From IMG/VR virus record IMGVR_UViG_2909246061_000001, positions 1 to 41,135 of that record: a DNA stretch of 41,135 nt. One strand, given 5' to 3'. Under the pieces are notes generated by a model. It did no database searches. It had not been told where the DNA came from and saw nothing but the letters and a program-made list of their open reading frames with translations. Positions 1,469 to 41,135 of the stretch are shown here, piece by piece; the stretch's first letter is position 1; every line of letters starts with the position of its first letter. The translations under genes were made by a program, and so were the position numbers. The stretch comes from a virus (lineage: Duplodnaviria; Heunggongvirae; Uroviricota; Caudoviricetes).

Positions 1469-1543
1469 CCATTTTAGTGTCACTACCAAAGAAAAAGGGG
1501 CTACGTTTTCATGTAACCCCTTGATTTATTTGGTGGGCTGGCA
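1469..1543 (-). repeat. degenerate copy of the ssrA 3' flank: terminator hairpin plus about 13 nt resembling the tmRNA 3' end
   Basis: 1469..1543 aligns with 40013..40086 with a few mismatches (ccattttNNNNNcactaccaaagaaaaaggggctacgYtttcaYgtaaccccttgatttatttggtgg), then diverges. Confidence 0.6.
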
Positions 1544-1721
1544 GTGACTGAATTGGTGCTGTAATTGGTTGAAATATTTCATCTAATGTCTGGTTCAACT
1601 TTCCTTAGCTGCCTGAAAGTTTTTTGATCTTACCCAGCAATAACAGCGTTACGGTGCACCACGCCTGACTGAAGAACTGCGTGCTCAGGGTTACCACTTC
1701 AACGTAAAACCGTGGCAGGAG

Positions 1722-1900
1722 GTCCGGACTGAAAAAACTGGTCAGGACATCATCGGCAGGGAACGCACTGCTAGTCTGTAAACTGAACCGACTGGGGCGC
1801 AGTATGTGGCATCTTGTCGTGCTGTTGGAGGAGCTGTGCGAACGTGGTATTAACTTTCGTGCTCTGGCCCAATCTATATTTGCCCAACAATGGGGGGACG
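1722..1900 (+). pseudogene. internal fragment of a Pin/Hin-family DNA invertase gene, truncated at its 3' side by IS1
   Basis: translation [51 protein letters not shown] matches the intact invertase at 31610..32176 (LKKLLRTLSAGDTLVVWKLDRLGRSMRHLVTLIEELRQRGVNFRSLTDSI); N-terminal catalytic region absent; frame runs into the IS1 end at 1901. Confidence 0.55.
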
Positions 1901-1955
1901 GGTGATGCTGCCAACTTACTGATTTAGTGTATGATGGTGTTTTTGAGGTGCTCCA

Positions 1956-2231
1956 GTGGCTTCTGTTTATATCAGCTGTCCCTCCTGTTCAGCTACTGAC
2001 GGGGTGGTGCGTAACGGTAAAAGTACTGCCGGACATCAGCGCTATCTCTGCTCTCACTGCCGTAAAACATGGCAACTGCAGTTCACTTACACCGCTTCTC
2101 AACCCGGTACGCACCAGAAAATCATTGATATGGCCATGAATGGCGTTGGATGCCGGGCAACCGCCCGCATTATGGGCGTTGGCCTCAACACGATTTTCCG
2201 CCATTTAAAAAACTCAGGCCGCAGTCGGTAA
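1956..2231 (+). CDS. insA: IS1 transposition regulator InsA
   Basis: 91-aa zinc-finger protein [40 protein letters not shown] typical of IS1 InsA. Confidence 0.85.
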
Positions 2232-2653
2232 CCTCGCGCATACAGCCGGGCAGTGACGTCATCGTCTGCGCGGAAATGGACGAACAGTGGGGCTATGTCG
2301 GGGCTAAATCGCGCCAGCGCTGGCTGTTTTACGCGTATGACAGGCTCCGGAAGACGGTTGTTGCGCACGTATTCGGTGAACGCACTATGGCGACGCTGGG
2401 GCGTCTTATGAGCCTGCTGTCACCCTTTGACGTGGTGATATGGATGACGGATGGCTGGCCGCTGTATGAATCCCGCCTGAAGGGAAAGCTGCACGTAATC
2501 AGCAAGCGATATACGCAGCGAATTGAGCGGCATAACCTGAATCTGAGGCAGCACCTGGCACGGCTGGGACGGAAGTCGCTGTCGTTCTCAAAATCGGTGG
2601 AGCTGCATGACAAAGTCATCGGGCATTATCTGAACATAAAACACTATCAATAA
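2150..2653 (+). CDS. insB: IS1 InsB reading frame (expressed as InsAB' transposase by -1 frameshift at the tttaaaaaac motif near 2203..2212)
   Basis: ORF with canonical IS1 InsB sequence (…[29 protein letters not shown]…); A6C slippery run present. Confidence 0.8.
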
Positions 2654-3913
2654 GTTGGGACCATTACCCATTGGGGCATATTTATACTCGTCTATATGAC
2701 AGTTACTTTTTAAAATTTCACCCTTAAAATCCTCAATTATCTCTGAGTAAAATGATCTTAGTGCTTCATTTATTTTGAGATAGCTGTAATCATGTTCTGG
2801 CTTATAACCAATCAAAGTATATGCTCTTAAAAGACCACCAAATCGGGTTCTATAAACAGAAGATGAAGGGCCTGTATCATCTTCATCAATGATAAAGCCT
2901 GATAGTTTTCCATTAGATTCTAATTTTTGTTTTAGTTTTTCTAATAGATCTTCATTAGTCAAATGAATGGATCGGAGCTGAATTATTTCTTGAGCTTTAT
3001 TGTATTTTTTCTTTGAAATAATAGGTTTATATGCCTTGTCACATCTAACCCATTCATGTTTGGGGTTTTTTACAAGCCTACTTTTTAATTTAGATGAGGT
3101 TTTGTTATATATGTTGTTTCCAATATATTTTTCATTTGTCAAAATTTGATGTATTTTTGCACGAGTCCATAATGTTCCATTTTCTGCAGGTATGTTCTGT
3201 TCATTTAATCTCTCAGCAATAATGAATTCTGGGACGTTATTATCTATAAAGAGATCATATATTCTATTTACAATTTTTATTTCATTTTTTGGTCCCGGAA
3301 TTAATATTACCCTATCTGTTTGAATACTCTTTCTTTTGCGGAAACTCAATATTTCTTTAGCTATGCCATTTTCGTCTACTAAAAGACGTCTCAGCCCATA
3401 ACCAGCCATACCGCCTTGATGATAACCAAGCTTTATTAAATTTACTTGCCCTATAAATACCTTATCAGATAGATTCCTGCTGTGATATGCAGCACTAGAT
3501 CTTTTTATATTCAGTATAACAGAGGACTCTAAAGGGAAATCTTTAGTGGGTATAGGTTCGGAACAATATATAAGATCTACACCATTTCTCTCAAATAGAA
3601 AGGAATAATATGCCGCTTCATCACTATTTTGAAAACGACCAAAACGGCTCACATCATAAAATAATACAGCCTGTATATCTATTTTCTTTTGTTCTACATC
3701 GCTAAGTAACTGCTGCAAAGAATGCCTGCCTACGATACTGACTCCGCTCTTACCTGCATCATCGTAGGTATAAGCGATTTCCATATTGTTCTTTTCAGCA
3801 TAATCTTTGATATATTCGGACTGATTATGTAAAGAATATTGCTGATGGTCGGTAGACATCCTCAAGTACTGCGCGACCCTAACTCTATGATTTTTGTCAT
3901 TTTCGCTAGCCAT
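2588..3913 (-). CDS. large serine recombinase (resolvase-type catalytic domain plus recombinase domain); 3' end interrupted by IS1, so the last 27 codons are IS1-derived and the protein is probably non-functional
   Basis: N-terminal YLRMSTDHQ serine-recombinase motif; AT-rich; ORF crosses the IS1 right end at 2668. Confidence 0.6.
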
Positions 3914-4195
3914 GCACGAAACCTCATGGATGATTCAATACAATGTAGTGGATAAAATTGATCAAATTTCAACCGAATTCAACTGTTTTATCATTGATTA
4001 GAGCGAATTTGGTAGATCTTCGAGGTGTATGATAATCGAGAAGAGATGTGAATTATTTAGCTGATATGACCGACAGCTTTCGTTATGTGGACTCAATGTC
4101 CCCATTTGTAAATGGCTATGCTTAGTCCACATAGGTTAATGGTGTGATTATTAATTCTTTAACTAAATCAAGATAGTTAATCCATCATGGGAGAG

Positions 4196-5425
4196 TTATG
4201 CGGCAATAACTTTGCATTTTTGAGACGAAACATAGTCACTCCACCATTGCATGAGAACCACCCGTTCAGTGAGATACTCTGCACGATTGTAGGCTGCAAT
4301 TATTTCATCTTTCTTCGAGTGGGCAAGGGCGGCTTCTAAGACATCAGTCCTAAACTTGCCAGACTCCTCAGCAGCCGTTCTAGCAATGGATCGCATACCG
4401 TGAGCTACAAGCTCACCTCCGAAACCCATACGGATTATGGCCGCATTAGCTGTTTGTTCATGCATGTGATTGAGTGGAGCTTTGATACTGGGGAACACCC
4501 ACTCTCTATGCCCGCTGATGACTTTCATTAAATCCAAAACTCGCAAAGCTTCTTTGCTCAGTGGAACTTTGTGAGGCTTCTTCATTTTCATAAACTCCGC
4601 CGGGATGTTCCACATGCCAGTTTCAATATCAATATCTGACCATCTTGTGCGAACAGCTTCACCTGGGCGAACCCATGTGAGAAGTTGCCACTCAATCAGT
4701 AGCCTTGTTTCCAAACGGATAGAAGCATTGTTTAGAGCAACCAAGAAGCGAGGGAGTTCGGAAGGGGGTAATGCTGGCATATTCTGTTTTTTTGGCTTGC
4801 TGAACCGTTGCCCCAGGTTGTCTGCCGGGTTGAATTCTATGAGTTCTTCTGTTGCTGCATAGCGGAAAATTTCATTCAGGCGGGATATGATGCGGCGAAG
4901 TGTTTCAAGGACACCTCGTTTTTCTATGGGTTCTAAATGCTGTTTAAGCATTTTAGGGCGAATCTCCTTAATTGGGGTATCACCCAATGTGGAAAAGATA
5001 TTTCTCTCTAGGCTTCGCCAGATGTCGTTAGCATGATCTTGGGAGATGCCTGACGTTTTGACTTTCTCATCAAGCCACTTCTTGGCTACTGCTTGAAATG
5101 TATGTTCCGTGGCATCTTTCAGTGCATTGGCTTTTTGGTTGTTATGAACTTGGGGGTCTATACCATTTGTAAGCAACGACAAGTATTCATCACGTAAAGC
5201 TCGTGCCTTCGCAAGTGTAAGGTGAGGATAGGTTCCTAAGCTCACCTTAGTTCGCTTTTTGGTCACAGGCACTGCATATCTGAAATACCAATTTTTCTTC
5301 CCTCCCTTCGCCAGGGGAGCGATTCGCAACAGCAAACCATCGCCGTCAAAAAGGTTAACCTCTTTTTCGGCAGGTTTGGTGCTTTTGATTTCAGTGTCAG
5401 TGAGCTTCTTAGCGATTTTGGCCAT
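4196..5425 (-). CDS. tyrosine integrase, P4/CP4-57 IntA family
   Basis: N-terminus MAKIAKKLTDTEIKSTKP…DGDGLLLRI…WYFRY typical of P4-type integrases; C-terminal catalytic domain with …HGMRSIARTAAEESG… and YNRAEYLTER; probable ATG at 5425 (the track ORF extends to 5506); lies directly beside an ssrA 3'-end copy, as intA does beside ssrA in CP4-57. Confidence 0.85.
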   Translation of the reverse strand: MAKIAKKLTDTEIKSTKPAEKEVNLFDGDGLLLRIAPLAKGGKKNWYFRYAVPVTKKRTKVSLGTYPHLTLAKARALRDEYLSLLTNGIDPQVHNNQKANALKDATEHTFQAVAKKWLDEKVKTSGISQDHANDIWRSLERNIFSTLGDTPIKEIRPKMLKQHLEPIEKRGVLETLRRIISRLNEIFRYAATEELIEFNPADNLGQRFSKPKKQNMPALPPSELPRFLVALNNASIRLETRLLIEWQLLTWVRPGEAVRTRWSDIDIETGMWNIPAEFMKMKKPHKVPLSKEALRVLDLMKVISGHREWVFPSIKAPLNHMHEQTANAAIIRMGFGGELVAHGMRSIARTAAEESGKFRTDVLEAALAHSKKDEIIAAYNRAEYLTERVVLMQWWSDYVSSQKCKVIAA

Positions 5426-5522
5426 GTTTGGGACCCTCGATTTTAGGACCCATCTTCGTGGGTCCCATTCAGGGTGCCATAACTCGTAGTTCTCAGCAAT
5501 TCTCACTAGACTACAATAGACG

Positions 5523-5560
5523 TAAAAAAGCCCGCAGAGCTTGTGCTGTGCGGGCTTAGT
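5523..5560 (-). terminator. rho-independent terminator hairpin downstream (minus sense) of the ssrA 3'-end copy
   Basis: minus-strand gcccgcacagcacaagctctgcgggc followed by tttttt. Confidence 0.45.
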
Positions 5561-5587
5561 AGACTTTACTGAACTTCAGTACATCAA

Positions 5588-5636
5588 TATTTGGTGGAGC
5601 TGGCGGGAGTTGAACCCGCGTCCGAAATTCCTACAT
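5588..5636. repeat. 49-bp direct repeat identical to the ssrA 3' end; left att site of the P2-like prophage
   Basis: 5588..5636 is identical to 40072..40120 and the sequences diverge immediately outside both copies. Confidence 0.85.
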
Positions 5637-5768: not shown

Positions 5769-7289
5769 TTATTCAGGCTTTAATTTATTGATAATAGAAT
5801 CTACCATTTTAATGCCTGCCTCATTGACTATGACTGAATTGACTACTCTATCAAAATAGTCCTCTATATGGTGGGAAAATAGGAAAGCAGCACTTGATGG
5901 TTTTTTGTTCTTTTCAACTGCAGATTGCAAGACTTCATGAGGCGGAATTTTAAACCTTTTGCATGATGCAATGAGATATTCAAACTCTTCAAATGATAGA
6001 CAAAAAATATTCTCTGTAGGGATATGATAGTTATGTTTAAACTTGTCATATATCTTATTCATCTCATCTTTAGCATAAGTATTAGCTAGGATACTACCAT
6101 TGCCTAAGAAAAGGTTTTTATATGTAATGCAAATGATATATGAGTTAGCCCTGAATGGAGCTATTATTCGCTCATTAGAGTATATTTCTCGATTAACTTC
6201 GTGAGATTGTTCGATTGCTTTTAATACCGATTTCTTTATTTTTCCTGCAATATCCTCAGGGCGTAATGTTACCATGCCTTTTTGGTGTATCTCAACGCCT
6301 TTAGCATCAATGAAAATATTTGCCTCAGTATGTGGAATGAAATAATCAACTACTTTATTATCTTTAGGTAGTCGTTCTTTAAGGTATTTTTCGTTATGAA
6401 AATCAATTTCGCTTTCTTTTAGTATTAATTCCAGTGCATTTTCAAATACATTTCCAAAGCTATCCATGAACTTCTCGGCATCAGTTCTTCTTAAAAGATC
6501 ATATATGAACGTCTGTATGCTTGTTGAAGTCAGTTGTGTGTGTATCTGAAAATACTCTGAACCTTTTTTTATTAATGGTTTTTCAAGAAAAGGTGATGAT
6601 GAGTAGTATTCAAGCAAAGGTTTATCATAGGTTTTTGATTTGCAAAATGTAGATAGTTCATTGTAATTTATTGATATTGCATCAAGAAATTTCTCAATGG
6701 TATTTCTAGGAATGATGTCAAATAATATAGTAAATGTATCTACATTCATTTTTCTCACGGGATGCTCTTCTGTTATGTGAGTTATTAATATGTAAGATAG
6801 CTTAAGAAAGTCTTCGATAGATACATTCGTGATAGTAAAAAAACTTTTCTTTATTTTATGGTTTTTTTCAAGTTCTGAAAATAGAAAGACTTGTCTGCTA
6901 ATTGTGTTTAGAGCGTCAATTTTCTGGTAGATTCCTTGTTGGTATAGATTATTTCTAATGAAGAAATGCATGCCATTCTTCCTCTCAAGACCGATAGGAA
7001 TAATGTTCAAGGTTTCATAAGTTTTTTGGAAGAGTTTTATTGCTTGATTTTTATCGAGGATTTTGAATTTTTTATTCTTGCCAGTTACTGACGCAGACCA
7101 CTTTAGACATAAATTAACAATCCAAGGCATGTGTCGTAACATGTGGATATTATCTTCAAATTTTTGTAAGTTATATTGCATACAGAATTCGATAAATAAA
7201 TCAGGGGAATAACCTTGGATTTCTGAACGAATAGCATCCATTCTTAACTTTGCAACCGCATCAGATTGAATATCTAATTTTTGAATCAC
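5769..7289 (-). CDS. hypothetical 506-aa protein; AT-rich cargo gene between the prophage integrase and the left att
   Basis: long ORF with GTG start and GGAGA RBS 13 bp after the int stop; very low GC against the phage backbone; I recognise no fold; possible PD-(D/E)xK-like signature VVDYF…IFIDAKG. Confidence 0.6.
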   Translation of the reverse strand: MIQKLDIQSDAVAKLRMDAIRSEIQGYSPDLFIEFCMQYNLQKFEDNIHMLRHMPWIVNLCLKWSASVTGKNKKFKILDKNQAIKLFQKTYETLNIIPIGLERKNGMHFFIRNNLYQQGIYQKIDALNTISRQVFLFSELEKNHKIKKSFFTITNVSIEDFLKLSYILITHITEEHPVRKMNVDTFTILFDIIPRNTIEKFLDAISINYNELSTFCKSKTYDKPLLEYYSSSPFLEKPLIKKGSEYFQIHTQLTSTSIQTFIYDLLRRTDAEKFMDSFGNVFENALELILKESEIDFHNEKYLKERLPKDNKVVDYFIPHTEANIFIDAKGVEIHQKGMVTLRPEDIAGKIKKSVLKAIEQSHEVNREIYSNERIIAPFRANSYIICITYKNLFLGNGSILANTYAKDEMNKIYDKFKHNYHIPTENIFCLSFEEFEYLIASCKRFKIPPHEVLQSAVEKNKKPSSAAFLFSHHIEDYFDRVVNSVIVNEAGIKMVDSIINKLKPE

Positions 7290-7301: not shown

Positions 7302-8315
7302 CTACAAATTATAAAGAGGATTTTTAGTCACCGCGTCTTCAAGGTGATCGGGCGAAAAGTGGGCGTAAATCATGGTCATTTTTATATCGGCATGACCCAA
7401 AATATCACGCAGTACCAGTATGTTTCCGCCGTTCATCATAAAGTGACTGGCGAATGTATGGCGAAGCACGTGGGTACATTGGCCCTCCGGTAGGTCAATA
7501 CCGGCCCGCTTTACTGCCCGCTCAAAGGCTTTTCTGCATGGCGTGAATAACTTTCCTCTGTTTTTGGGGAGTTCATCATACAGATCCTGAGATATCGGCA
7601 CAGTACGGTTTTTCTTGCCTTTTGTTTTTGTATAAGTAATTCGGTATTTCGATATTTGATGGCCCTGCAGATTTTCGGCTTCACTCCACCGTGCGCCAGT
7701 AGCCAGACATATTTTTGCAATCATTAGTAAGCTAGGGCTTTGAGATTCAGCACATGCCGCCAACAGGCGCTTGATTTCGTCCGTGGAAAGAAAAGCCAGC
7801 TCACCTTCGGCAATTTTGAAGGTCGGAAGTCCTGCCAGCGGGTTTGGTGCTGACCAGTGTCCTAGTTTTTTTAATGTACCGAACACAGATGATAGATTGC
7901 GCTGTTCAAGGTTTACCGTGCGGGGCTTAACGGGCGACATCAGCGTGCCATCTTCATTTCGCACTTCACCTTTTAGCCGTGCTTCGCGGTATTTCGTAAA
8001 GTCACCGGCAGTCAGCTCTGAAGCGATGGGATCGCCCAGACCATTACAGATAATTCCAAGTTTCGCCATGAGTCGCTTGGGGTCTGCGAGTGTTTGACCA
8101 TACAGGGAATACCACAGCTCAATTAATTCTGATAGGTGTCGCCGATCTTCCTTTTCTCCCAGCCAAGGTTTCTTGTTTACCTCGTCCATGGTGAAATTCT
8201 CAAACGCAATGGCTTCGCCTTTCGTCGCAAATTGTTTGCGTACGCGTTTGCCATCTCGCCCGTTTGGGTAGCATTCACATAACCACTTTCCGTTCGGCTG
8301 TTTTCTGATGGTCAT
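7302..8315 (-). CDS. int: P2/186-type tyrosine integrase
   Basis: 337 aa, same length as P2 Int; C-terminal motifs ARWSEA…HVLRHTFASHFMMNGGNILVLRDILGHADIKMTMIYAHF. Confidence 0.9.
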   Translation of the reverse strand: MTIRKQPNGKWLCECYPNGRDGKRVRKQFATKGEAIAFENFTMDEVNKKPWLGEKEDRRHLSELIELWYSLYGQTLADPKRLMAKLGIICNGLGDPIASELTAGDFTKYREARLKGEVRNEDGTLMSPVKPRTVNLEQRNLSSVFGTLKKLGHWSAPNPLAGLPTFKIAEGELAFLSTDEIKRLLAACAESQSPSLLMIAKICLATGARWSEAENLQGHQISKYRITYTKTKGKKNRTVPISQDLYDELPKNRGKLFTPCRKAFERAVKRAGIDLPEGQCTHVLRHTFASHFMMNGGNILVLRDILGHADIKMTMIYAHFSPDHLEDAVTKNPLYNL

Positions 8316-8316
8316 A

Positions 8317-8949
8317 TCAAAGGCTCTTAATGATTTTCAGTGCGCGGCCTATTACCTCAATGTCATCCAGTTCGCACTCAAACGATGAATCATCCTGATG
8401 CACTACTAATCTGTTTCCCGGGAGTCGTGTCAATTTTACAATGCTTTTTATCCCGTCGATGTCCACTAACCACGTACCATTTACTGGTGGTGTTTGGTTG
8501 CGATCTATTAAATAAGAATCACCAGAAGTAGTCACCAGCAGCAGGTTGCTTGAGTCTGAGGGGAGTATGCTGCTATCAATGATTGCTTTTCCAGCATCGA
8601 TCAGCAAACCTCCGTTGAGAGTTGCCTTGTCAATTTCAGGAGATACAAGCTCCGAAAGAGGTTTAACTTTGCTAGAGTTCACGGAATTGATATTTTTTTT
8701 AGGGTCAATGTTTGAACCTGGATCGCCCTGTCCGGTAGTTAGCCACAGTAAAGAAACTCCTGTTTCCAAAGCGCACTGAATCACCCATTCTGCAGGAAAA
8801 CTATCTCTTAAGTATCTGTTTGCCATAGTGCTTTTTGATGCGCCCAAGTGATCGCAAAGTTGCTGTCTGGACTTGAAATCATAGGCTGCCATTAGCCTAT
8901 GGATAGCCTCTCTTCCCCCTGTATTCTCGCCAGCTTTTACTTGTATCAT
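8317..8949 (-). CDS. cI: 186 CI-type immunity repressor
   Basis: N-terminal HTH plus C-terminal region with CALETGVSLLWLTTGQG and TWLVDIDGIKSIVKLTRLPGNRLVV resembling the 186 CI repressor; divergent from the early operon. Confidence 0.75.
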   Translation of the reverse strand: MIQVKAGENTGGREAIHRLMAAYDFKSRQQLCDHLGASKSTMANRYLRDSFPAEWVIQCALETGVSLLWLTTGQGDPGSNIDPKKNINSVNSSKVKPLSELVSPEIDKATLNGGLLIDAGKAIIDSSILPSDSSNLLLVTTSGDSYLIDRNQTPPVNGTWLVDIDGIKSIVKLTRLPGNRLVVHQDDSSFECELDDIEVIGRALKIIKSL

Positions 8950-9068: not shown

Positions 9069-9317
9069 ATGAGCAACGACATTTCAATTCGTGTACCAAA
9101 AGTGATGGCGACACCAGCTGAGTTCGCGGAATGGGAAGGCCGCTCTCGCGGTTCGGTATATCAAATGATTCATAATGGTAAACTCGCTAAATTCTTGGAA
9201 AGAAAAGAAAAATCGAAAGACAGAGTATGTATACGTTACCTTGAGTACAAAAAGGAACAAGTCAGGAAAAACATGGGCCAATCCAATTTCAACTTTAATG
9301 TCATCGTTGGTGACTAA
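9069..9317 (+). CDS. small HTH protein, Apl/Cox-like excisionase or regulator
   Basis: first gene of the rightward early operon opposite cI; basic 82-aa protein. Confidence 0.5.
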   Translation: MSNDISIRVPKVMATPAEFAEWEGRSRGSVYQMIHNGKLAKFLERKEKSKDRVCIRYLEYKKEQVRKNMGQSNFNFNVIVGD

Positions 9318-9349: not shown

Positions 9350-9859
9350 ATGTTTGATTACAAGATTTCCAAACATCCGCATTTTGATGAAGCCTGTAGA
9401 GCTTTTGCACTACGTCACAATATGGCAAAGCTGGCAGAACGTGCAGGAATGAATGTTCAGACACTGCGAAACAAACTCAATCCAGATCAACCGCATCAGC
9501 TCACCGCACCAGAAATCTGGTTGCTTACCGATCTGACTGAAGATTCAACGTTGGTAGACGGTTTTCTGGCACAGATTCATTGTCTGCCATGTGTTCCGAT
9601 TAATGAGGTGGCAAAAGAGAAACTGCCGCATTACGTCATGAGTGCAACTGCAGAGATCGGGCGTGTTGCTGCAGGTGCGGTATCTGGCGATGTAAAAACC
9701 AGTGCAGGTCGTCGTGATGCTATCAGCAGCATTAACTCTGTAACACGACTGATGGCGCTGGCGGCTGTTTCATTGCAGGCCCGTTTACAGGCTAATCCTG
9801 CGATGGCAAGTGCAGTTGATACTGTAACTGGCCTCGGTGCGTCATTCGGTTTGCTGTGA
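9350..9859 (+). CDS. cII: phage regulatory protein CII (186 CII-like)
   Basis: MFDYKISKHPHFDEACRAFALRHNMAKLAERAGMNVQTLRNKLNPDQPHQ closely resembles 186 CII. Confidence 0.8.
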   Translation: MFDYKISKHPHFDEACRAFALRHNMAKLAERAGMNVQTLRNKLNPDQPHQLTAPEIWLLTDLTEDSTLVDGFLAQIHCLPCVPINEVAKEKLPHYVMSATAEIGRVAAGAVSGDVKTSAGRRDAISSINSVTRLMALAAVSLQARLQANPAMASAVDTVTGLGASFGLL

Positions 9860-10900: not shown

Positions 10901-11754
10901 GCACCATCCTGAAATGGGCGGGAAATAAAACCGCCATTATGTCCGAACTGAAAAAACACCTTCCTGCTGGCCCGCGACTGGTTGAACCTTTCGCGGGTTC
11001 CTGTGCTGTGATGATGGAGACGGATTACCCCAGCTATCTGGTTGCGGATATTAATCCTGATTTAATCAACCTCTATAAAAAGGTTGCCGCTGATTGTGAA
11101 TCGTTTATATCTCGCGCCAGAGTTTTATTTGAGATCGCAAACAGGGAGGTGGCTTATTACAACATAAGGCAGGAGTTTAATTACTCCACTGAAATTACTG
11201 ATTTCATGAAAGCGGTATATTTCCTGTATCTCAATCGTCACGGTTACCGTGGTTTATGTCGCTATAACAAGAGCGGGCATTTCAACATTCCCTACGGTAA
11301 TTATAAAAATCCGTATTTCCCTGAAAAAGAAATTCGCGCATTTGCAGAAAAAGCCCAGCGGGCAACGTTTATCTGCGCCAGCTTTGATGAAACGCTGGCG
11401 ATGTTGAAGGCGGGGGATGTGGTGTATTGCGATCCGCCGTATGACGGCACGTTTTCCGGTTATCACACTGACGGCTTCACTGAAGATGACCAGTATCACC
11501 TGGCATCCGTTCTTGAACATCGGTCATCAGAAGGACATCCGGTCATTGTTTCTAACAGTGACACATCCCTGATCCGTTCGCTGTATCGCAATTTTACTCA
11601 CCACTACATCAAGGCAAAACGCAACATCGGTGTGGCAGCTGGAGAGGGTAAATCAGCAACAGAAATCATTGCTGTTTCCGGGCCGCGCTGCTGGGTGGGA
11701 TTTGATTATTCGCGTGGCGTGGACAGTTCTGCCGTGTACGGAGTACGTGCATGA
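10897..11754 (+). CDS. dam: DNA adenine methyltransferase (Dam-like, orphan)
   Basis: N-terminal ILKWAGNK…EPFAGSCAV AdoMet-binding motif and DPPY catalytic motif; no partner endonuclease nearby. Confidence 0.85.
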
Positions 11755-14165
11755 GTCATGCCGATATGAACAACTGCTGCGGCTTTAACGAGGCTGCCGC
11801 AGCATTCTCATGGAACAGCCCGAAAAAGGCCATTAACCCTTATCTGGACCCGGCGGAAGTTGCGCCGGTTTCTGCGCTTTCAAACCTGATCACTCTGTAC
11901 GCTGCCGATAACGAGCAGGAACAACTGCGCCGCGAGGCACTGAGTGATCAGGTCTGGGAGCGTTATTTCTTTAATGAATCCCGTGATCCTGTCCAGCGCG
12001 AAATGGAGCAGGATAAGCTAATTAGCCGGGCAAAGCTGGCGCATGAGCAGCAGCGTTTTAATCCAGACATGGTCATTCTGGCGGATGTCAACGCCCAGCC
12101 TTCCCATATCAGCAAGCCGCTGATGCAACGTATTAAATACTTCAGCAACCTGGGCAGGCCAAAGGCTTATTCCCGCTATTTGCGTGAGACGATTAAGCCA
12201 TGCCTGGAACGACTGGAGCATGTACGCGACAGCCAGCTATCTGCATCTTTTCGTTTTATGGCAAGCCATGAAGGGCTGGACGGTCTGCTGATCCTGCCTG
12301 AAATGAGTCAGGATCAGGTGAAACGCCTGTCCACCCTTGTCGCTGCGCATATGAGCATGTGTCTTGATGCCGCTTGTGGTGATTTGTACGCCTCCGATGA
12401 TGTTAAGCCGGAAGAAATCCGCAAGACATGGGAAAAGGTGGCAGCAGAAACCCTGCGACTGGATGTCATACCGCCTGCGTTTGAGCAACTCCGCCGGAAA
12501 AGAAACCGCCGCAAACCTGTGCCCTATGAACTCATTCCGGGTTCGCTGGCGCGTATGCTGTGCGCCGACTGGTGGTATCGAAAATTATGGAAGATGCGTT
12601 GCGAATGGCGGGAAGAGCAGTTGCGTGCTGTCTGTCTGGTCAGCAAAAAAGCATCTCCCTATGTCAGCTATGAAGCCGTGATGCATAAACGTGAGCAGCG
12701 CCGTAAGTCGCTGGAGTTTTTCCGTTCTCATGAACTGGTGAACGAAGACGGCGACACGCTGGACATGGAGGATGTGGTAAACGCCAGCAGCAGCAACCCT
12801 GCGCATCGCCGCAATGAGATGATGGCCTGTGTTAAAGGCCTGGAGCTTATCGCGGAAATGCGCGGTGACTGCGCCGTTTTCTACACCATCACCTGTCCGT
12901 CACGTTTCCATTCCACGCTAAATAACGGCAGGCCCAACCCGACCTGGACAAATGCGACGGTAAGACAAAGCAGTGATTATCTGGTTGGCATGTTTGCTGC
13001 ATTTCGTAAGGCGATGCACAAAGCCGGATTGCGCTGGTATGGCGTGCGGGTGGCTGAGCCGCATCATGACGGTACAGTTCACTGGCACCTGTTGTGTTTT
13101 ATGCGCAAAAAAGATCGCCGCGCCATTACTGCTTTGTTGCGTAAGTTTGCCATTCGTGAAGACCGCGAGGAGCTGGGGAATAACACGGGACCACGCTTTA
13201 AGTCTGAGTTGATTAACCCGCGCAAAGGAACGCCGACAAGCTACATCGCGAAATATATCAGTAAGAACATTGACGGGCGTGGTCTGGCTGGCGAGATCAG
13301 CAAGGAAACGGGTAAATCCCTGCGTGATAACGCTGAATACGTGAATGCCTGGGCGTCTCTGCATCGTGTTCAGCAATTCCGCTTCTTTGGCATTCCGGGG
13401 CGTCAGGCTTACCGTGAACTGCGATTGCTGGCTGGTCAGGCGGCAAGGCAACAGGGTGACAAAAAAGCAGGTGCGCCGGTACTGGATAACCCGCGCCTTG
13501 ATGCAATCCTGGCTGCTGCTGATGCTGGTTGTTTTGCCACCTACATCATGAAGCAGGGCGGCGTACTGGTTCCCCGTAAATATCACCTCATCAGAACTGC
13601 TTATGAAATCAACGAAGAGCCGACCGCCTATGGCGATCACGGCATTCGTATTTATGGCATCTGGTCACCTATTGCAGAGGGCAAGATCTGCACTCATGCC
13701 GTGAAGTGGAAAATGGTTCGTAAGGCCGTTGACGTTCAGGAGGCGGCAGCCGACCAGGGCGCTTGCGCCCCTTGGACTCGTGGCAATAACTGTCCCCTTG
13801 CTGAAAATTTGAACCAACAAGGGAAAGACAAATCAGCTGATGGGGATACCAGAACGGACATTACCCGCATGGATGACAAGGAGTTGCACGAATACCTGCA
13901 CAGTATGAGCAAAAAAGAGCGCCGGGAACTGGCTGCAAGGTTACGCCTGGTGAAACCGAAACGGCGTAAAGACTACAAACAGCGAATTACAGACCATCAG
14001 CGACAGCAGCTCGTCTATGAACTGAAGTCCAGAGGATTTGATGGCAGCGAGAAAGAGGTCGATTTACTCCTTCGCGGCGGCAGTATTCCGTCAGGAGCAG
14101 GCCTGCGTATCTTCTATCGGAACCAGCGTTTGCAGGAAGATGATAAGTGGCGGAACCTGTATTAA
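11751..14165 (+). CDS. A: P2 gpA-type replication initiation endonuclease
   Basis: 804 aa; HUH-type motif VHWHLLCF and catalytic Tyr region [12 protein letters not shown]. Confidence 0.9.
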
Positions 14166-14259
14166 TTACGCGGGTTAACAATTCGTGCTCTTAATAATAC
14201 CAGGCATTTCAGGCTGATGAACGTAAAAAAACGTTTTACATCAGTAAGATTATTATATA

Positions 14260-14275
14260 CTGTAAATATAAACAG
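14260..14275. promoter_or_regulatory. LexA (SOS) box upstream of the small operon at 14318
   Basis: ctgtaaatataaacag is a perfect CTGT-N8-ACAG match, about 40 bp before the AGGAGG RBS and ATG at 14318. Confidence 0.55.
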
Positions 14276-14317
14276 TGGTTATATATACAGTATTACTTTG
14301 GTGTCATAGGAGGAAAG

Positions 14318-14506
14318 ATGCAGGACTATTTTTTGGAGTCTTTGAAGCTCCAGCGCATTGATTTTTTTCTTAAGCTTGTAGCGGCTAGTGAGTGTAGTGA
14401 TGAAGAGAAGGGGCTGGCTCTGCAGTGGGTTTCTGAATTGACTGATGAACTCATGGCAAAAATCAGAACCCACGAATACAACCGCTCAATGGATGTCATC
14501 AGCTGA
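14318..14506 (+). CDS. small SOS-regulated protein, possible Tum-like antirepressor
   Basis: 62-aa ORF directly downstream of the LexA box; functional assignment is by position only. Confidence 0.4.
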   Translation: MQDYFLESLKLQRIDFFLKLVAASECSDEEKGLALQWVSELTDELMAKIRTHEYNRSMDVIS

Positions 14507-14516
14507 GGTGACCTTT

Positions 14517-14750
14517 ATGCGCATTGAAATAATGATCGATAAAGAGCAGAAGATTAGCCAGTCTACCCTGGACGCCCTTGAATCCGAGCTTTACCGCAAT
14601 CTGCGCCCCCTGTATCCCAAAATGGTAATTCGCATCCGCAAAGGTAGCTCTAACGGTGTGGAACTGACCGGACTGCAACTGGACGAAGAAAGAAAACAAG
14701 TGATGAAGATTATGCAGAAGGTGTGGGAAGACGACAGCTGGCTGCATTAA
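14517..14750 (+). CDS. DinI-family protein
   Basis: MRIEIMIDKEQKISQSTLDALESEL…KVWEDDSWL resembles E. coli DinI (MRIEVTIAK…); track ORF 14445..14750 trimmed to the internal ATG at 14517. Confidence 0.7.
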   Translation: MRIEIMIDKEQKISQSTLDALESELYRNLRPLYPKMVIRIRKGSSNGVELTGLQLDEERKQVMKIMQKVWEDDSWLH

Positions 14751-14909
14751 GAAAAGTTGCTGGCGTCTGAACTTGGTTCTGGCGTCAGCAAGGTTGAACA
14801 ACGAGTACAGTGAGGCGTTAGGTGTGGCGTTTATTTGATGAGTGAACGCCCGTTCTGCGACAGGTTCGGAGATTAAGGTTGAAACTACGGGCAAAATACC
14901 ATCTTTTTC

Positions 14910-15335
14910 CTACTTAATTGAGTCCAGTAACAAGTTACAGTTACTCTCATTGTAGAGAGAACGAGCAATTAGTGTTACCTGCTTTCCATTCATTCCCGGC
15001 TTATCCCATAACACAGCTTCTTGCGACGCCACAAATTCAGCATAATCAATTATGCGTTGTTCGTGATCTGGTTCCTCATAGCCAAAGTATGAGAGCGCAT
15101 CGTTGTAAGCGTGGTAAGCTGCTTTCTGTAATATCTTGATATCGGCTGTAGGTACTTGCTCCGTGTAGCTAGGATCTAATTGTGTGCTACTGCCATAGAA
15201 TGCACATGAAAGGTAAGATATTGATTTCTGTTGAGCTTTAGTTCCTTTCTCATAGTTTTTAGCTGTTACCGCCTGAACTGGGACGCTAACAAAGCTTGCA
15301 ACCAGAATTAAAATTAATACGTAAAAGCTTTTCAT
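14910..15335 (-). CDS. small secreted protein of unknown function (141 aa, signal peptide)
   Basis: N-terminus MKSFYVLILILVASFVSVPVQA with probable cleavage after VQA; AT-rich; opposite strand to neighbours; on the A side of cos. Confidence 0.55.
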   Translation of the reverse strand: MKSFYVLILILVASFVSVPVQAVTAKNYEKGTKAQQKSISYLSCAFYGSSTQLDPSYTEQVPTADIKILQKAAYHAYNDALSYFGYEEPDHEQRIIDYAEFVASQEAVLWDKPGMNGKQVTLIARSLYNESNCNLLLDSIK

Positions 15336-15697: not shown

Positions 15698-15763
15698 GCG
15701 CGCTTATTACTTTGATAGTACTCGGGTTATAATATGGATGACTATCTATCTCGGAGAATGTAC

Positions 15764-17416
15764 ATGTCATTAGACTATATTAAAGAACAGTTGTCAGACT
15801 TTATTTCATCTGCAGAACCTGAGGTAATGGCTATTCAGGGTGAGTGGGGGATTGGGAAAACCTATACTTGGAATGCTTTCTTAAAGGAAAATAAAAATAA
15901 GATTGCATTTAATAGATATAGTTACGTCTCTCTTTTTGGTGTTAATTCATTGGACGCATTAAAATACTCCATCTTTGAAAATACAATTACGAAAGATTTC
16001 ATTGGAAACAAACCTAATTTAAAAACAGCAACACAAAATGCAAAGGGGCTTCTTGAATCCTGCACTAGAAAGACCGCTCGTGTGTTAAAAGATACACCTT
16101 TTTTGAAAAATTTCACTACGACACTTGAGTCAATGTCATTTATGTCAATTACTAATGTTATTGTAGTCATAGATGACTTAGAAAGACGTGGTAAAAATTT
16201 AGAAGTGAAAGATGTCTTAGGGTTGGTTTCTTTATTGAAAGAACAAAAAAATTGTAAGGTGGTTCTTTTACTTAATAACGGGACAAGTGGTATGGATGAC
16301 TACTCCACTTATAAAGAAAAGGTTATTGATAGAGAGATTACCTATAATCCTACTCCAGAAGAATGTGCAGTTATAGCATATAAAAATAATTCTGATGTTC
16401 ATAAATTATTAAGCAAATACTCCATTTCCCTGGGTATTAAGAATATTAGGATACTGAAAAAAATAGAGCGGTTTTTGCTAGCCTTGTTACCTGGCATTAA
16501 CGTTAATTTTGAAAAAATTGCAAATGAAGTCGCACACTCCTTAACTTTGTATTGTTGGAGTCATTACGCATTTACTCCAGATGGAGATGTACCATCATTG
16601 GAGTATATTAGAAATATGAGAAATATCTATATGCGTGATGAAAAAGAGGATGGAAAAGAAAAAAAATGGCTTAATACTTTGCTTATATATGATTATAAAA
16701 AAACAAACGAACTTGATGAAGTCCTTATAGACATGGTAAAGCATGGATATATTGATATGAACAATTTCCAAAGGCAAGTAAGTCTAAGGAATGATGAACT
16801 TATCCGTGATAGTAAGCGAGGTTCACTGTTTGAAGCATGGAAGCTTTTCTATAATTCATTTGAAGATAACCGAAATCAGGTTATTGATAATCTATATCAA
16901 GCGGTGGTTGGTGGGATAGAGTATGTAACTCCAAGTGACTTGGATAGTGTTGTCGGACTGTATAGAGATTTAGGTGAAAATATTCAAGCAAGTGAATTAA
17001 TAAGTAAATTTATTAATTACGGCAATGATGCTCTTAAGGAATATGTTCAATCTATTTACATGAATGTTCATCCTATAAAAGATGCTGAGTTAAAGTCAAA
17101 AATCCAAGATTATTCTACTACTTTAAATCTGGATGGTTCTATAAAGGATGTTCTAATAAAATTATCAAGTCAGAATGGTTGGTCTGATAGGCACGAGGAA
17201 ATATTGGATGCTGCCTCAGAGGATGACTACTATGATTTATTTAAAAAAGTCATTCTTGATGGTGGTGATTCAATAATAGCTACTGCTCTTAAGTTTGGTG
17301 GGTATAGCAATGGTTCAGAAAGAATGAAACGCATCGGAGAAAAAGCGAGAAATGCTTTGATAAGAATTGGAAATGAGTCGAGCATTAATAAAATACGTGT
17401 TAGACGGTATTTGTAA
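15764..17416 (+). CDS. KAP-family P-loop NTPase-like protein (551 aa from the ATG at 15764); candidate anti-phage cargo
   Basis: Walker A GEWGIGKT (15839..15862) and Walker B VIVVIDDLER (about 16160..16186) in KAP-type spacing; GGAG RBS before ATG 15764; perfect TATAAT at 15728..15733; AT-rich; followed by a terminator hairpin. Confidence 0.7.
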   Translation: MSLDYIKEQLSDFISSAEPEVMAIQGEWGIGKTYTWNAFLKENKNKIAFNRYSYVSLFGVNSLDALKYSIFENTITKDFIGNKPNLKTATQNAKGLLESCTRKTARVLKDTPFLKNFTTTLESMSFMSITNVIVVIDDLERRGKNLEVKDVLGLVSLLKEQKNCKVVLLLNNGTSGMDDYSTYKEKVIDREITYNPTPEECAVIAYKNNSDVHKLLSKYSISLGIKNIRILKKIERFLLALLPGINVNFEKIANEVAHSLTLYCWSHYAFTPDGDVPSLEYIRNMRNIYMRDEKEDGKEKKWLNTLLIYDYKKTNELDEVLIDMVKHGYIDMNNFQRQVSLRNDELIRDSKRGSLFEAWKLFYNSFEDNRNQVIDNLYQAVVGGIEYVTPSDLDSVVGLYRDLGENIQASELISKFINYGNDALKEYVQSIYMNVHPIKDAELKSKIQDYSTTLNLDGSIKDVLIKLSSQNGWSDRHEEILDAASEDDYYDLFKKVILDGGDSIIATALKFGGYSNGSERMKRIGEKARNALIRIGNESSINKIRVRRYL

Positions 17417-31609: not shown

Positions 31610-32176
31610 ATGCTTATTGGCTATGTACGCGTGTCAACAAATGACCAGAACACCGATTTGCAACGTAATGCACTGAACTGCGCGGGATGTGAGCGGATTT
31701 TTGAGGACAAAATCAGTGGCACTAAGTCCGACAGACCGGGACTGAAAAAACTGCTCAGGACATTATCGGCAGGTGACACTCTGGTTGTCTGGAAGCTGGA
31801 CAGGTTGGGGCGCAGTATGCGGCATCTCGTTACGCTGATAGAAGAGCTGCGCCAGCGTGGCGTGAATTTCCGAAGCCTGACTGACAGTATTGATACCAGT
31901 ACCCCAATGGGCCGTTTCTTTTTTCATGTCATGGGTGCCTTGGCTGAAATGGAACGCGAACTGATAGTTGAACGTACCAGGGCGGGGATTGCTGCAGCTC
32001 GCGACAAAGGCAGAGTAGGTGGACGCCGTCCTAAGTTGACCACCGAACAGTGGGCACAGATTGGACGTTTACTAGAGGCCGGAGAATCAAGACAGCGTAT
32101 TGCACTGATTTTTGATGTGGGCGTTTCTACCATTTATAGAAAATTTCCGGCAAATAAGAGCAGTGAATCCCCCTGA
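31610..32176 (+). CDS. site-specific DNA invertase, Hin/Gin/Cin/Pin family serine recombinase
   Basis: MLIGYVRVSTNDQNTDLQRNAL…VVWKLDRLGRSMRHL…C-terminal HTH; nearly identical N-terminus to e14 Pin. Confidence 0.9.
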   Translation: MLIGYVRVSTNDQNTDLQRNALNCAGCERIFEDKISGTKSDRPGLKKLLRTLSAGDTLVVWKLDRLGRSMRHLVTLIEELRQRGVNFRSLTDSIDTSTPMGRFFFHVMGALAEMERELIVERTRAGIAAARDKGRVGGRRPKLTTEQWAQIGRLLEAGESRQRIALIFDVGVSTIYRKFPANKSSESP

Positions 32177-39952: not shown

Positions 39953-40032
39953 GTGAAACCTCTTTGCATGATTTCAAGATGGCGACAGGCAAGATGGACG
40001 CAAAAGTCTGTCGCCATTTTGCCGCCACTACC

Positions 40033-40065
40033 AAAGAAAAAGGGGCTACGCTTTCACGTAACCCC
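40033..40065 (-). terminator. ssrA rho-independent terminator (phage-supplied copy inside the prophage right arm)
   Basis: minus-strand hairpin ggggttacg-tgaaag-cgtagcccc followed by tttttcttt, directly after the tmRNA 3' end. Confidence 0.6.
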
Positions 40066-40071
40066 TTGATT

Positions 40072-40120
40072 TATTTGGTGGAGCTGGCGGGAGTTGAACC
40101 CGCGTCCGAAATTCCTACAT
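40072..40120. repeat. 49-bp direct repeat at the prophage right junction, overlapping the ssrA 3' end
   Basis: identical to 5588..5636. Confidence 0.85.
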
Positions 40121-40438
40121 CCTCGGTACTACATGCTTAGTCAGTCTTTACATTCGCTTGCCAGCTGCGGACGGACACGCCACTAACAAACTAGCCTGAT
40201 TAAGTTTTAACGCTTCAACCCCAGGCAGGGCTTCCACGCGATCTCTTTTGGGTTTGACCTCTCTTGATCCCCGTCCTAAGAGCGGAGGCTAGGGAGAGAG
40301 GGCTCTAAGCAGGTTATTAAGCTGCTAAAGCGTAGTTTTCGTCGTTTGCGACTATTTTTTGCGGCTTTTTACGAGGCCAACCGCCCCTCGGCATGCACCT
40401 TGGGTTTCGCAAATCCCGTCGAATCCAGAATCAGCCCC
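40076..40438 (-). ncRNA. ssrA: tmRNA (SsrA), 363 nt, intact
   Basis: reverse complement reads GGGGCTGATTCTGGATTCGACGGGATTTGCGAAACCCAAGGTGCATGCC…GGACGCGGGTTCAACTCCCGCCAGCTCCACCA, matching E. coli tmRNA end to end. Confidence 0.95.
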
Positions 40439-40652: not shown

Positions 40653-41135
40653 TTAACGGTGGGCGTTTTTCATGATACGCGCTTTATCCACCTGCCATTC
40701 GCGCTCTTTGATATCTGAACGTTTATCGTGCTGTTTCTTACCTTTGGCGACGCCGATTTTCACTTTGCACCAGGCATTTTTCCAGTACAGGGAGAGCGCC
40801 ACTACGGTATAGCCTTCTCGATTGACGCGACCGTACAATGAGTCCAGTTCGCGCTGGTTGAGAAGTAACTTGCGGGTACGGGTAGGATCGCACACCACAT
40901 GCGTGGAGGCCACTGCCATTGGCGTGATGTTTGCGCCAAACAGGAACGCTTCTCCGTCACGCAGAAGGACATAGCTGTCGCTGATATTGGCTTTTCCTGC
41001 GCGCAGGGATTTAACTTCCCAGCCTTGCAGGGCAAGTCCCGCTTCGAACTCTTCTTCGATAAAGTATTCGTGACGGGCGCGCTTGTTAAGCGCGATGGTC
41101 GCTGAACCAGGTTTATGTGCTTTTTTCTTCGTCAT
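40653..41135 (-). CDS. smpB: SsrA-binding protein SmpB
   Basis: 160-aa protein [48 protein letters not shown]… essentially identical to E. coli SmpB; upstream of ssrA on the same strand. Confidence 0.95.

Follow-up and report, generated by a model that had tools for sequence, protein, structure and literature searches.

The stretch from 14258 to 14750 on the plus strand of the window (the whole 41,135-nt length of DNA that was analysed) was identified as the SOS operon of a P2-like prophage of the Fels-2/186 type that is inserted at ssrA in E. coli, a reading to which we assign a probability of about 90%. It comprises a LexA-type operator, a gene of 62 codons, here called tumA, and a DinI-family gene of 77 codons, here called tumB, and every element listed for this region by the first-pass annotation was found in its place or at most 1 base away. 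The wording 'Tum-like plus DinI-like' used there is better put as the two halves of 186 Tum carried as separate genes. Both the class (186 Tum) and the gene itself (tum of the E. coli HS prophage DuoHS, and the split tum of Fels-2 and PSP3) have been described before, and the finding is correct but ordinary, since a gene identical to tumA at 61 of 62 residues has already been shown to be needed for induction of the E. coli HS prophage. The residual interest lies in a colicin-type double operator and in a near-invariant TumA that faces diverged CI repressors.

Prophage and gene setting

The window contains a complete P2/186-like prophage of ~34.4 kb (about 5637–40071), flanked by a perfect 49-nt direct repeat (5588–5636 and 40072–40120) that represents the 3′ end of ssrA. 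The tmRNA gene (ssrA) was located at 40076–40438 on the minus strand and is followed by smpB at 40653–41135. Within the prophage, the integrase gene (7302–8315) and cI (8317–8949), which encodes a 186-type immunity repressor and presumed target of TumA, are both on the minus strand, and an apl/cox-like gene (9069–9317), cII (9350–9859; Phage_CP76) and replication gene A (gpA; 11751–14165; Pfam Phage_GPA, 1.6e-127) are on the plus strand. The operator (14258–14292) falls within a 152-nt gap 3′ of gene A, and the operon has the location of a 186-type tum, downstream of the replication gene and behind a putative LexA-repressed promoter.

At the distal end of the operon, a GC-rich hairpin (14757–14791, plus strand; a stem of 11 + 4 bp by RNA folding, without a U tract) lies 3′ of tumB and is possibly a partial terminator or a transcript-end structure; no canonical intrinsic terminator was called at the tum operon by the generic promoter and terminator scan. 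Homology to the relatives stops at 14748 or at 14821, which marks the point where the variable cargo, situated between tumB and the portal gene, begins.

LexA operator and promoter

LexA (SOS) box 1, TACTGTAAATATAAACAGTG, occupies 14258–14277 on the plus strand, and the sequence reported by the first-pass annotation, CTGTAAATATAAACAG at 14260–14275, carries the exact CTGT-N8-ACAG core and is the sole occurrence of that pattern in the window. The bare core is not significant alone (1 observed against 0.58 expected, with one or more in 46 of 100 shuffles); the full 20-mer agrees with the LexA consensus TACTGTATATATATACAGTA at 17 of 20 positions, and a match of this quality was obtained in 0 of 100 shuffles. 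The palindromic core, the AT-rich spacer and the good consensus match are those of an E. coli-type LexA operator. The term 'perfect LexA box' is accurate for this core but understates the operator, which is double. LexA-like box 2, CAGTGGTTATATATACAGTA at 14273–14292 on the plus strand, was absent from the first-pass annotation; its core GTGGTTATATATACAG (GTGG-N8-ACAG) lies at 14275–14290, and its left half is degenerate, with GTGG in place of CTGT. The two cores share one base, in keeping with the overlap of one to two bases that defines colicin-type double SOS boxes.

Related loci were compared as a set of 33, made up of 32 genome loci with sufficient upstream sequence and the window itself, and drawn from Escherichia, Citrobacter, Enterobacter, Klebsiella, Raoultella, Kluyvera, Serratia, Pantoea, Erwinia, Tatumella and other genera of the Enterobacterales. 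Box 1, written as CTGT-N8-[AC]CAG upstream of tumA, was kept in 31 of them, with variation in the N8 spacer and in the surrounding bases; box 2 was present in 21, and in 28 TT[TC]ACA preceded CTGT by exactly 19 nt. Over the 60 nt directly 5′ of the tumA start, mean ungapped identity to the window was only 40% across the related loci. Fixed motifs amid varying spacers are the pattern expected from selection on a promoter-overlapping LexA operator.

The predicted tum promoter, equivalent to p95 of 186, was read from the sequence with a –35 hexamer TTTACA at 14235–14240 and, after a 17-nt spacer, a probable –10 hexamer TACTGT at 14258–14263, placed inside box 1 by analogy with p95. This layout matches that of the annotated p95 (TTCACA-18 nt-TACTGT), in which the –10 TACTGT likewise lies inside the LexA box. 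Another –10 candidate, TATACT, can be read at 14256–14261 with a spacer of 15 nt. On the p95 analogy and the conservation described above, box 1 would overlap the promoter of tumA. The promoter was not reported by the generic promoter scan, because TACTGT is a weak –10 hexamer that shares only 3 of its 6 bases with TATAAT. Promoter and box 1 are the same base for base in the window, DuoHS, Fels-2 and phage 813R9.

The 40-nt block that holds both boxes was 84–88% identical over 42–49 nt to ~1000 small plasmid records, and in the three plasmids that were checked the match lay ~40–85 nt 5′ of colicin E1-like or cloacin-like genes. Colicin and cloacin operators likewise consist of two boxes with a one-base overlap (compare TATACTGTAAATATAAACAGTGGTTATATATACAGTAT in the window with TATACTGTATATAAAACCAGTGGTTATATGTACAGTAT in a cloacin-like plasmid), and colicin operators are stated in a 2010 article (PMC2994835, citing Lu and Chak 1996) to bind two LexA dimers. 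The operator of the window differs in controlling a prophage antirepressor rather than a bacteriocin, and in lying closer to the start codon (~28 nt from box 2, compared with ~45 nt in the colicin and cloacin genes); it differs also from the operators of 186 and PSP3, each of which has a single LexA box. By analogy with the colicin operators, both boxes would be occupied by LexA, and tumA is probably very tightly repressed and derepressed late in the SOS response, which would suit a gene that commits the cell to lysis. Such tight or late control of tumA was not found stated in the literature searched, which did not extend to the original work on lexA and tum in Fels-2 (Bunny, Liu and Roth 2002).

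The tumA and tumB genes

The tumA gene (14318–14506, plus strand) encodes a predicted 62-aa antirepressor homologous to the N-terminal part of 186 Tum. It was found as first described, behind the Shine–Dalgarno sequence AGGAGG at 14308–14313 on the plus strand, 4 nt 5′ of the ATG at 14318, and (T)AGGAGG is kept in most of the 33 related loci. The 62-codon frame is intact in 29 of the 33, and differences from the window are distributed over codon positions 1, 2 and 3 as 236, 113 and 649, with 536 synonymous against 274 non-synonymous codon changes. These comparisons argue strongly for a real coding gene under clear purifying selection at the protein level; the possibility that the ORF is non-coding was rejected on the intact frames and the codon-position bias. 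The product is identical at 61 of 62 residues to Fels-2 STM2728 and to E. coli HS ECHS_RS04495. It matches phrog_698 (PHROGs, function unknown) at 3.6e-38, and no TumA family was found in Pfam or PADLOC. The AlphaFold2 model of TumA is a helical hairpin with helices at 2–22 and 28–61 and a mean pLDDT of 88.9.

The tumB gene (14517–14750, plus strand) starts 10 nt 3′ of tumA, and a Shine–Dalgarno-like GAGGTGA (14505–14511, plus strand) overlaps the tumA stop codon; in those related loci that have tumB, 8–13 nt separate its start from the tumA stop. The 77-aa product is homologous to the C-terminal half of 186 Tum, with 40% identity to Tum residues 71–145 (E 2e-23). Its earlier assignment to the DinI family was confirmed by a match to Pfam DinI (PF06183; E 5.4e-23, 81.5 bits against a cut-off of 24.2) that covers profile positions 1–63 of 63. 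TumB also matches phrog_189 at positions 71–148 of 151 and carries the acidic C-terminal motif VWEDDSW. A modulation of RecA activity by TumB, as suggested in the first-pass annotation, would be plausible.

Relation to 186 Tum

No BLASTP alignment was obtained between the 62-aa ORF and 186 Tum, and the label 'Tum-like' was borne out at the level of profiles. A TumA family profile, built from a 29-sequence alignment of diverse members, was matched by hhalign to 186 Tum with a probability of 94.3% and an E of 1.1e-7, over residues 5–44 of both, and the two share the pattern (L/I)xR(I/V)xLxxRLxA-xxxC-x5-(L/I)ALxx(W/L)xxE(L/I). The same profile gave a weak match to PSP3 TumA (E 0.004, probability 8%). 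As in PSP3 and Fels-2, the DinI moiety directly follows the antirepressor part and is split from it rather than fused; according to Lemire et al. (2011), a stop codon divides tum in both of those phages, and the upstream gene of PSP3 encodes the antirepressor. In 186 itself, an internal GTG start behind a strong Shine–Dalgarno sequence yields the DinI-like part alone, which is annotated as modulating SOS induction. The split pair of PSP3, the TumA profile and the identity of TumB to 186 Tum together lead us to describe the operon of the window as the 186 tum split into two genes.

A phmmer search of 1.84 billion representatives gave 66 matches to TumA, nearly all shorter than ~130 aa and with the match N-terminal or filling the protein, and there was no TumA–DinI fusion among them. 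The fused form is therefore apparently confined to the 186-type lineage.

Comparison with known systems

The closest known system is that of DuoHS in E. coli HS, where tum (ECHS_RS04495) and the DinI-like ECHS_RS04500 stand in the same order of gene A, tumA, tumB, cargo and portal, and where the promoter and both boxes are those of the window except for one spacer base in box 2. DuoHS differs in its CI, which is of 189 aa and 77% identical to the window CI in the N-terminal domain (NTD) and 35% in the C-terminal domain (CTD), in the cargo 3′ of tumB and in its site of integration, which is next to rcdA rather than at ssrA.

Fels-2 integrates at ssrA. Its operator, too, departs from that of the window at one spacer base of box 2 only, and 10 nt downstream of STM2728 lies a DinI-like gene (STM2726.1) whose annotation notes a similarity to PSP3 TumB; STM2728 itself still bears the name 'hypothetical protein', and the cargo genes differ from those of the window. 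The CI of Felsduovirus RE2010, taken as a stand-in for that of Fels-2, is only 52% identical overall to the window CI. Fels-2 has been described as analogous to 186 (Lemire et al. 2011).

PSP3 carries the same split SOS operon 3′ of gene A, and its –10 region is overlapped by a LexA box. Its tumA is annotated as 'similar to 5′ end 186 tum; UV induction of prophage' and its tumB as 'similar to dinI and 3′ end of 186 tum'. By direct comparison of the translations, PSP3 TumB differs from the TumB of the window at only 15 of 77 positions, whereas PSP3 TumA, of 60 aa, is of another sequence type and PSP3 CI is a 286-aa double-HTH protein.

Coliphage 186 (p95-tum-orf97) has a LexA-repressed promoter likewise downstream of gene A and a non-cleavable, 186-type CI. 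It differs from the window in that Tum is a fused 146-aa protein with an internal start rather than the product of two genes, and in having orf97 downstream where the window has cargo. The Gifsy dinI-gfoA and dinI-gftA systems resemble the operon in having a LexA box, a small antirepressor (~60–80 aa), a DinI homologue and repressors that remain uncleaved (Lemire et al. 2011), and differ in their reversed order with dinI first, in their unrelated antirepressor and repressor families and in their lambdoid backbone.

The CI repressor as presumed target

The earlier call of a 186-type CI was upheld: the product of 8317–8949 (minus strand) bears Pfam Phage_CI_repr (6e-31) and Phage_CI_C (4.8e-28), and no match to a Peptidase_S24 domain was found in it (Pfam, E up to 0.01). 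It is 32% identical to 186 CI. According to Shearwin et al. [quoted passage not shown]

Phages whose TumA is 98–100% identical to that of the window have CI proteins that are only 40–58% identical to the window CI overall and include double-HTH forms of 311–313 aa. By domain, these repressors are 65–78% identical to the window CI in the N-terminal HTH domain and 32–52% in the CTD, compared with 38–42% and 33–37%, respectively, for 186 and PSP3, which have other TumA types; the CTDs of DuoHS, 813R9, 4LV2017 and phi8.4 are no closer to that of the window than are those of 186 and PSP3. TumA type thus tracks the DNA-binding domain of CI and not its oligomerization domain, a co-variation drawn from about a dozen related phages, uncorrected for shared ancestry and to be read as a lead only. 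It suggests that TumA targets the CI NTD.

A broader proposal, which we put forward tentatively and consider rather more doubtful than probable, is that the near-invariant TumA acts as a 'generalist' antirepressor of the conserved N-terminal HTH of CI across heteroimmune 186-type repressors (40–100% identical overall, double-HTH forms included), with the colicin-type double LexA operator gating induction to late or high SOS. Neither a generalist TumA nor gating by a double operator was found stated in the literature searched.

Mode of induction

In the lysogen, host LexA bound to the double operator (14258–14277 and 14273–14292), which overlaps the –10 region and the start of the promoter just 3′ of gene A, would silence tumA-tumB. 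Upon DNA damage, activated RecA would promote self-cleavage of LexA and the two genes would be transcribed. The two-helix TumA would then bind the 186-type CI, which is without a self-cleavage domain, and stop its binding to the operator, so that the lytic promoter beside cI would be derepressed (apl, cII and the replication genes) and the prophage induced. TumB, expressed together with TumA, would probably modulate RecA filaments or the strength of induction in an accessory role.

SOS induction through an antirepressor, as proposed in the first-pass annotation, is supported by work on DuoHS by Ortiz de Ora et al. 2025 (PMC12055606), whose supplementary methods list their tum under the locus tag ECHS_RS04495. 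An in-frame Δtum abolished mitomycin-C-induced lysis and virion formation, and lexA(Ind–) separately abolished both (PMC12055606); the deletion removed the 62-aa gene only, with the start codon fused to the stop codon. The requirement for tumA and for a cleavable LexA has thereby been established by others in near-identical phages. Transfer of the DuoHS result to the window assumes that the same TumA acts on a diverged CI, given the 35–77% identity by domain between the two repressors.

The DuoHS deletion also bears on the very unlikely alternative that the DinI-like TumB is the real inducer, through RecA or CI, and that the upstream ORF is a leader or accessory peptide. The DinI-like part does lie within the Tum polypeptide in 186, conservation between PSP3 and the window is greater for TumB than for TumA, and the two genes, 10 nt apart, are almost certainly co-transcribed; yet the non-inducible DuoHS mutant lacks the 62-aa gene alone, the antirepressor activity of PSP3 maps to the upstream gene and dinI deletions left the induction of Gifsy prophages unchanged (Lemire et al. 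2011). The DinI gene is, moreover, missing downstream of tumA in 13 of the 33 related loci, and the upstream ORF is under the protein-level purifying selection described above. We regard TumB as an accessory modulator that is not essential for induction, and TumA as the antirepressor. Slightly less improbable, though still very unlikely, is that TumA is the inducer by a route other than direct action on CI, such as targeting of LexA or RecA or switching mediated by Apl/Cox. The occurrence of an identical TumA with CI proteins of 40–58% overall identity would be unusual for a specific repressor–antirepressor pair and speaks for such a route; against it stand the homology of TumA to the N-terminal part of the CI-binding 186 Tum and the 65–78% identity of the CI NTD among phages that share TumA, compared with ~40% in 186 and PSP3, which marks this domain as a conserved target surface.

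That the LexA box is fortuitous, and that tumA and tumB are morons expressed constitutively or under CI control which benefit the host (by damping SOS, for instance) rather than act in prophage induction, is very improbable. In its favour, DinI proteins modulate SOS in the host, the generic scan called neither a canonical sigma-70 promoter nor a terminator, and a CTGT-N8-ACAG core is expected by chance at a frequency of 0.58 per window. However, the match of the 20-mer to the consensus is far above chance, the –35 hexamer and the two boxes recur at fixed spacing in 21–31 of the 33 loci across genera while their neighbours drift, and the operator is nearly identical to colicin operators known to bind LexA. 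The block imposed by lexA(Ind–) on the sister phage DuoHS, in which box 1 and the promoter are identical, likewise points to LexA control of the antirepressor operon.

Prevalence and significance

Of 5426 complete E. coli genomes, 1082 (~20%) contain the tum module over no less than 80% of its length. In the RefSeq entries inspected (E. coli HS and the matches listed), the 62-aa gene is named 'hypothetical protein' by PGAP, and across the wider protein collection TumA-family entries carry that same name, with 'levan regulatory protein' used for a few of them. The finding contributes little to biology beyond the established LexA-controlled antirepressor induction of 186, Fels-2, PSP3 and DuoHS-type prophages; its practical value is one of annotation, in that naming TumA would mark the prophages that carry it as SOS-inducible by antirepression. 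The double operator, together with an invariant TumA set against diverging CI proteins, may aid the modelling or engineering of induction thresholds in P2-like prophages, and, if TumA is indeed a generalist, all such prophages in one cell could be cross-induced.

SOS operator, tumB and the 3' end of the operon

Upstream of tumA, the gene of the 62-aa putative antirepressor (14318..14506, +), a second LexA-like box was located at 14273-14292, with a one-base overlap with the first (14258-14277). Phages 186 and PSP3 carry a single LexA box each, in contrast to the two of the window, and single boxes were also found in the tumA loci of Pantoea, Erwinia and Tatumella (L039-L046). The two-box block resembled the double SOS operators of colicin and cloacin plasmids, with 84-88% identity to sequences upstream of bacteriocin genes in approximately 1000 plasmids (gene context checked in three). 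The DinI-like gene tumB (14517..14750, +) is not an obligatory partner of tumA, since it was missing downstream of the latter in 13 of the 33 compared loci (L022, L026, L032, L036, L040-L047 and L049); L039 retained it despite its single LexA box. Directly 3' of tumB, a strong GC-rich hairpin of 11 + 4 bp without a U tract was present at 14757-14791, and homology to relatives stopped close around it. This structure may act as a partial terminator like t95a of phage 186, or may stabilize the transcript.

Divergence of CI among phages sharing TumA

The 186-type repressor CI of the window (8317-8949, −), the presumed target of TumA, was compared with those of related phages (L006-L016). Among phages with 98-100% identical TumA, overall CI identity was just 40-58%, and double-HTH CI forms of 311-313 aa were included. 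Identity of 65-78% was kept in the CI N-terminal domain and fell to 32-52% in the C-terminal domain.

Variable cargo downstream of tumB

The variable cargo slot extending from tumB to the portal gene is occupied by a gene for a 560-aa KAP-family P-loop NTPase (15734-17416, +; Pfam KAP_NTPase, 1.3e-8), which also matched the PADLOC candidate defence family PDC-S49 (1.8e-25). At 80% or more of its length, this cargo was found in only 4 of 5426 complete E. coli genomes. It shares the slot with a 141-aa ORF (14910-15335, −) assigned to phrog_7437 (function unknown, 4e-99), which has a hydrophobic N-terminus resembling a signal peptide and gave no match in Pfam, NCBIfam or PADLOC.

Integration site and further cargo

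Islands were arranged in tandem at ssrA (1469-5636 and 40014-40120). The P2-like prophage is flanked by a 49-nt att repeat (5588-5636 and 40072-40120). Another repeat, of 68 nt and 91% identity (1469-1536 and 40014-40081), flanks a small remnant island, in which an IS1 fragment (2150-2653), a serine recombinase (2588-3913) and a CP4-57-type integrase (4196-5506) were identified. Immediately outside the left boundary of this island are split ypjC-family ORFs (1-483 and 583-1374). A separate 134-nt direct repeat (78% identity) was present in the IS1-adjacent part of the left island (1726-1859) and directly upstream of the prophage tail sheath gene (31739-31872).

A 506-aa protein encoded in the interval from the prophage att site to the integrase gene (5769-7289, −) matched NCBIfam antiphage_GapS1 over the family cut-off (3.1e-128); from this position and family assignment, the gene is predicted to be the second defence cargo that the prophage carries.
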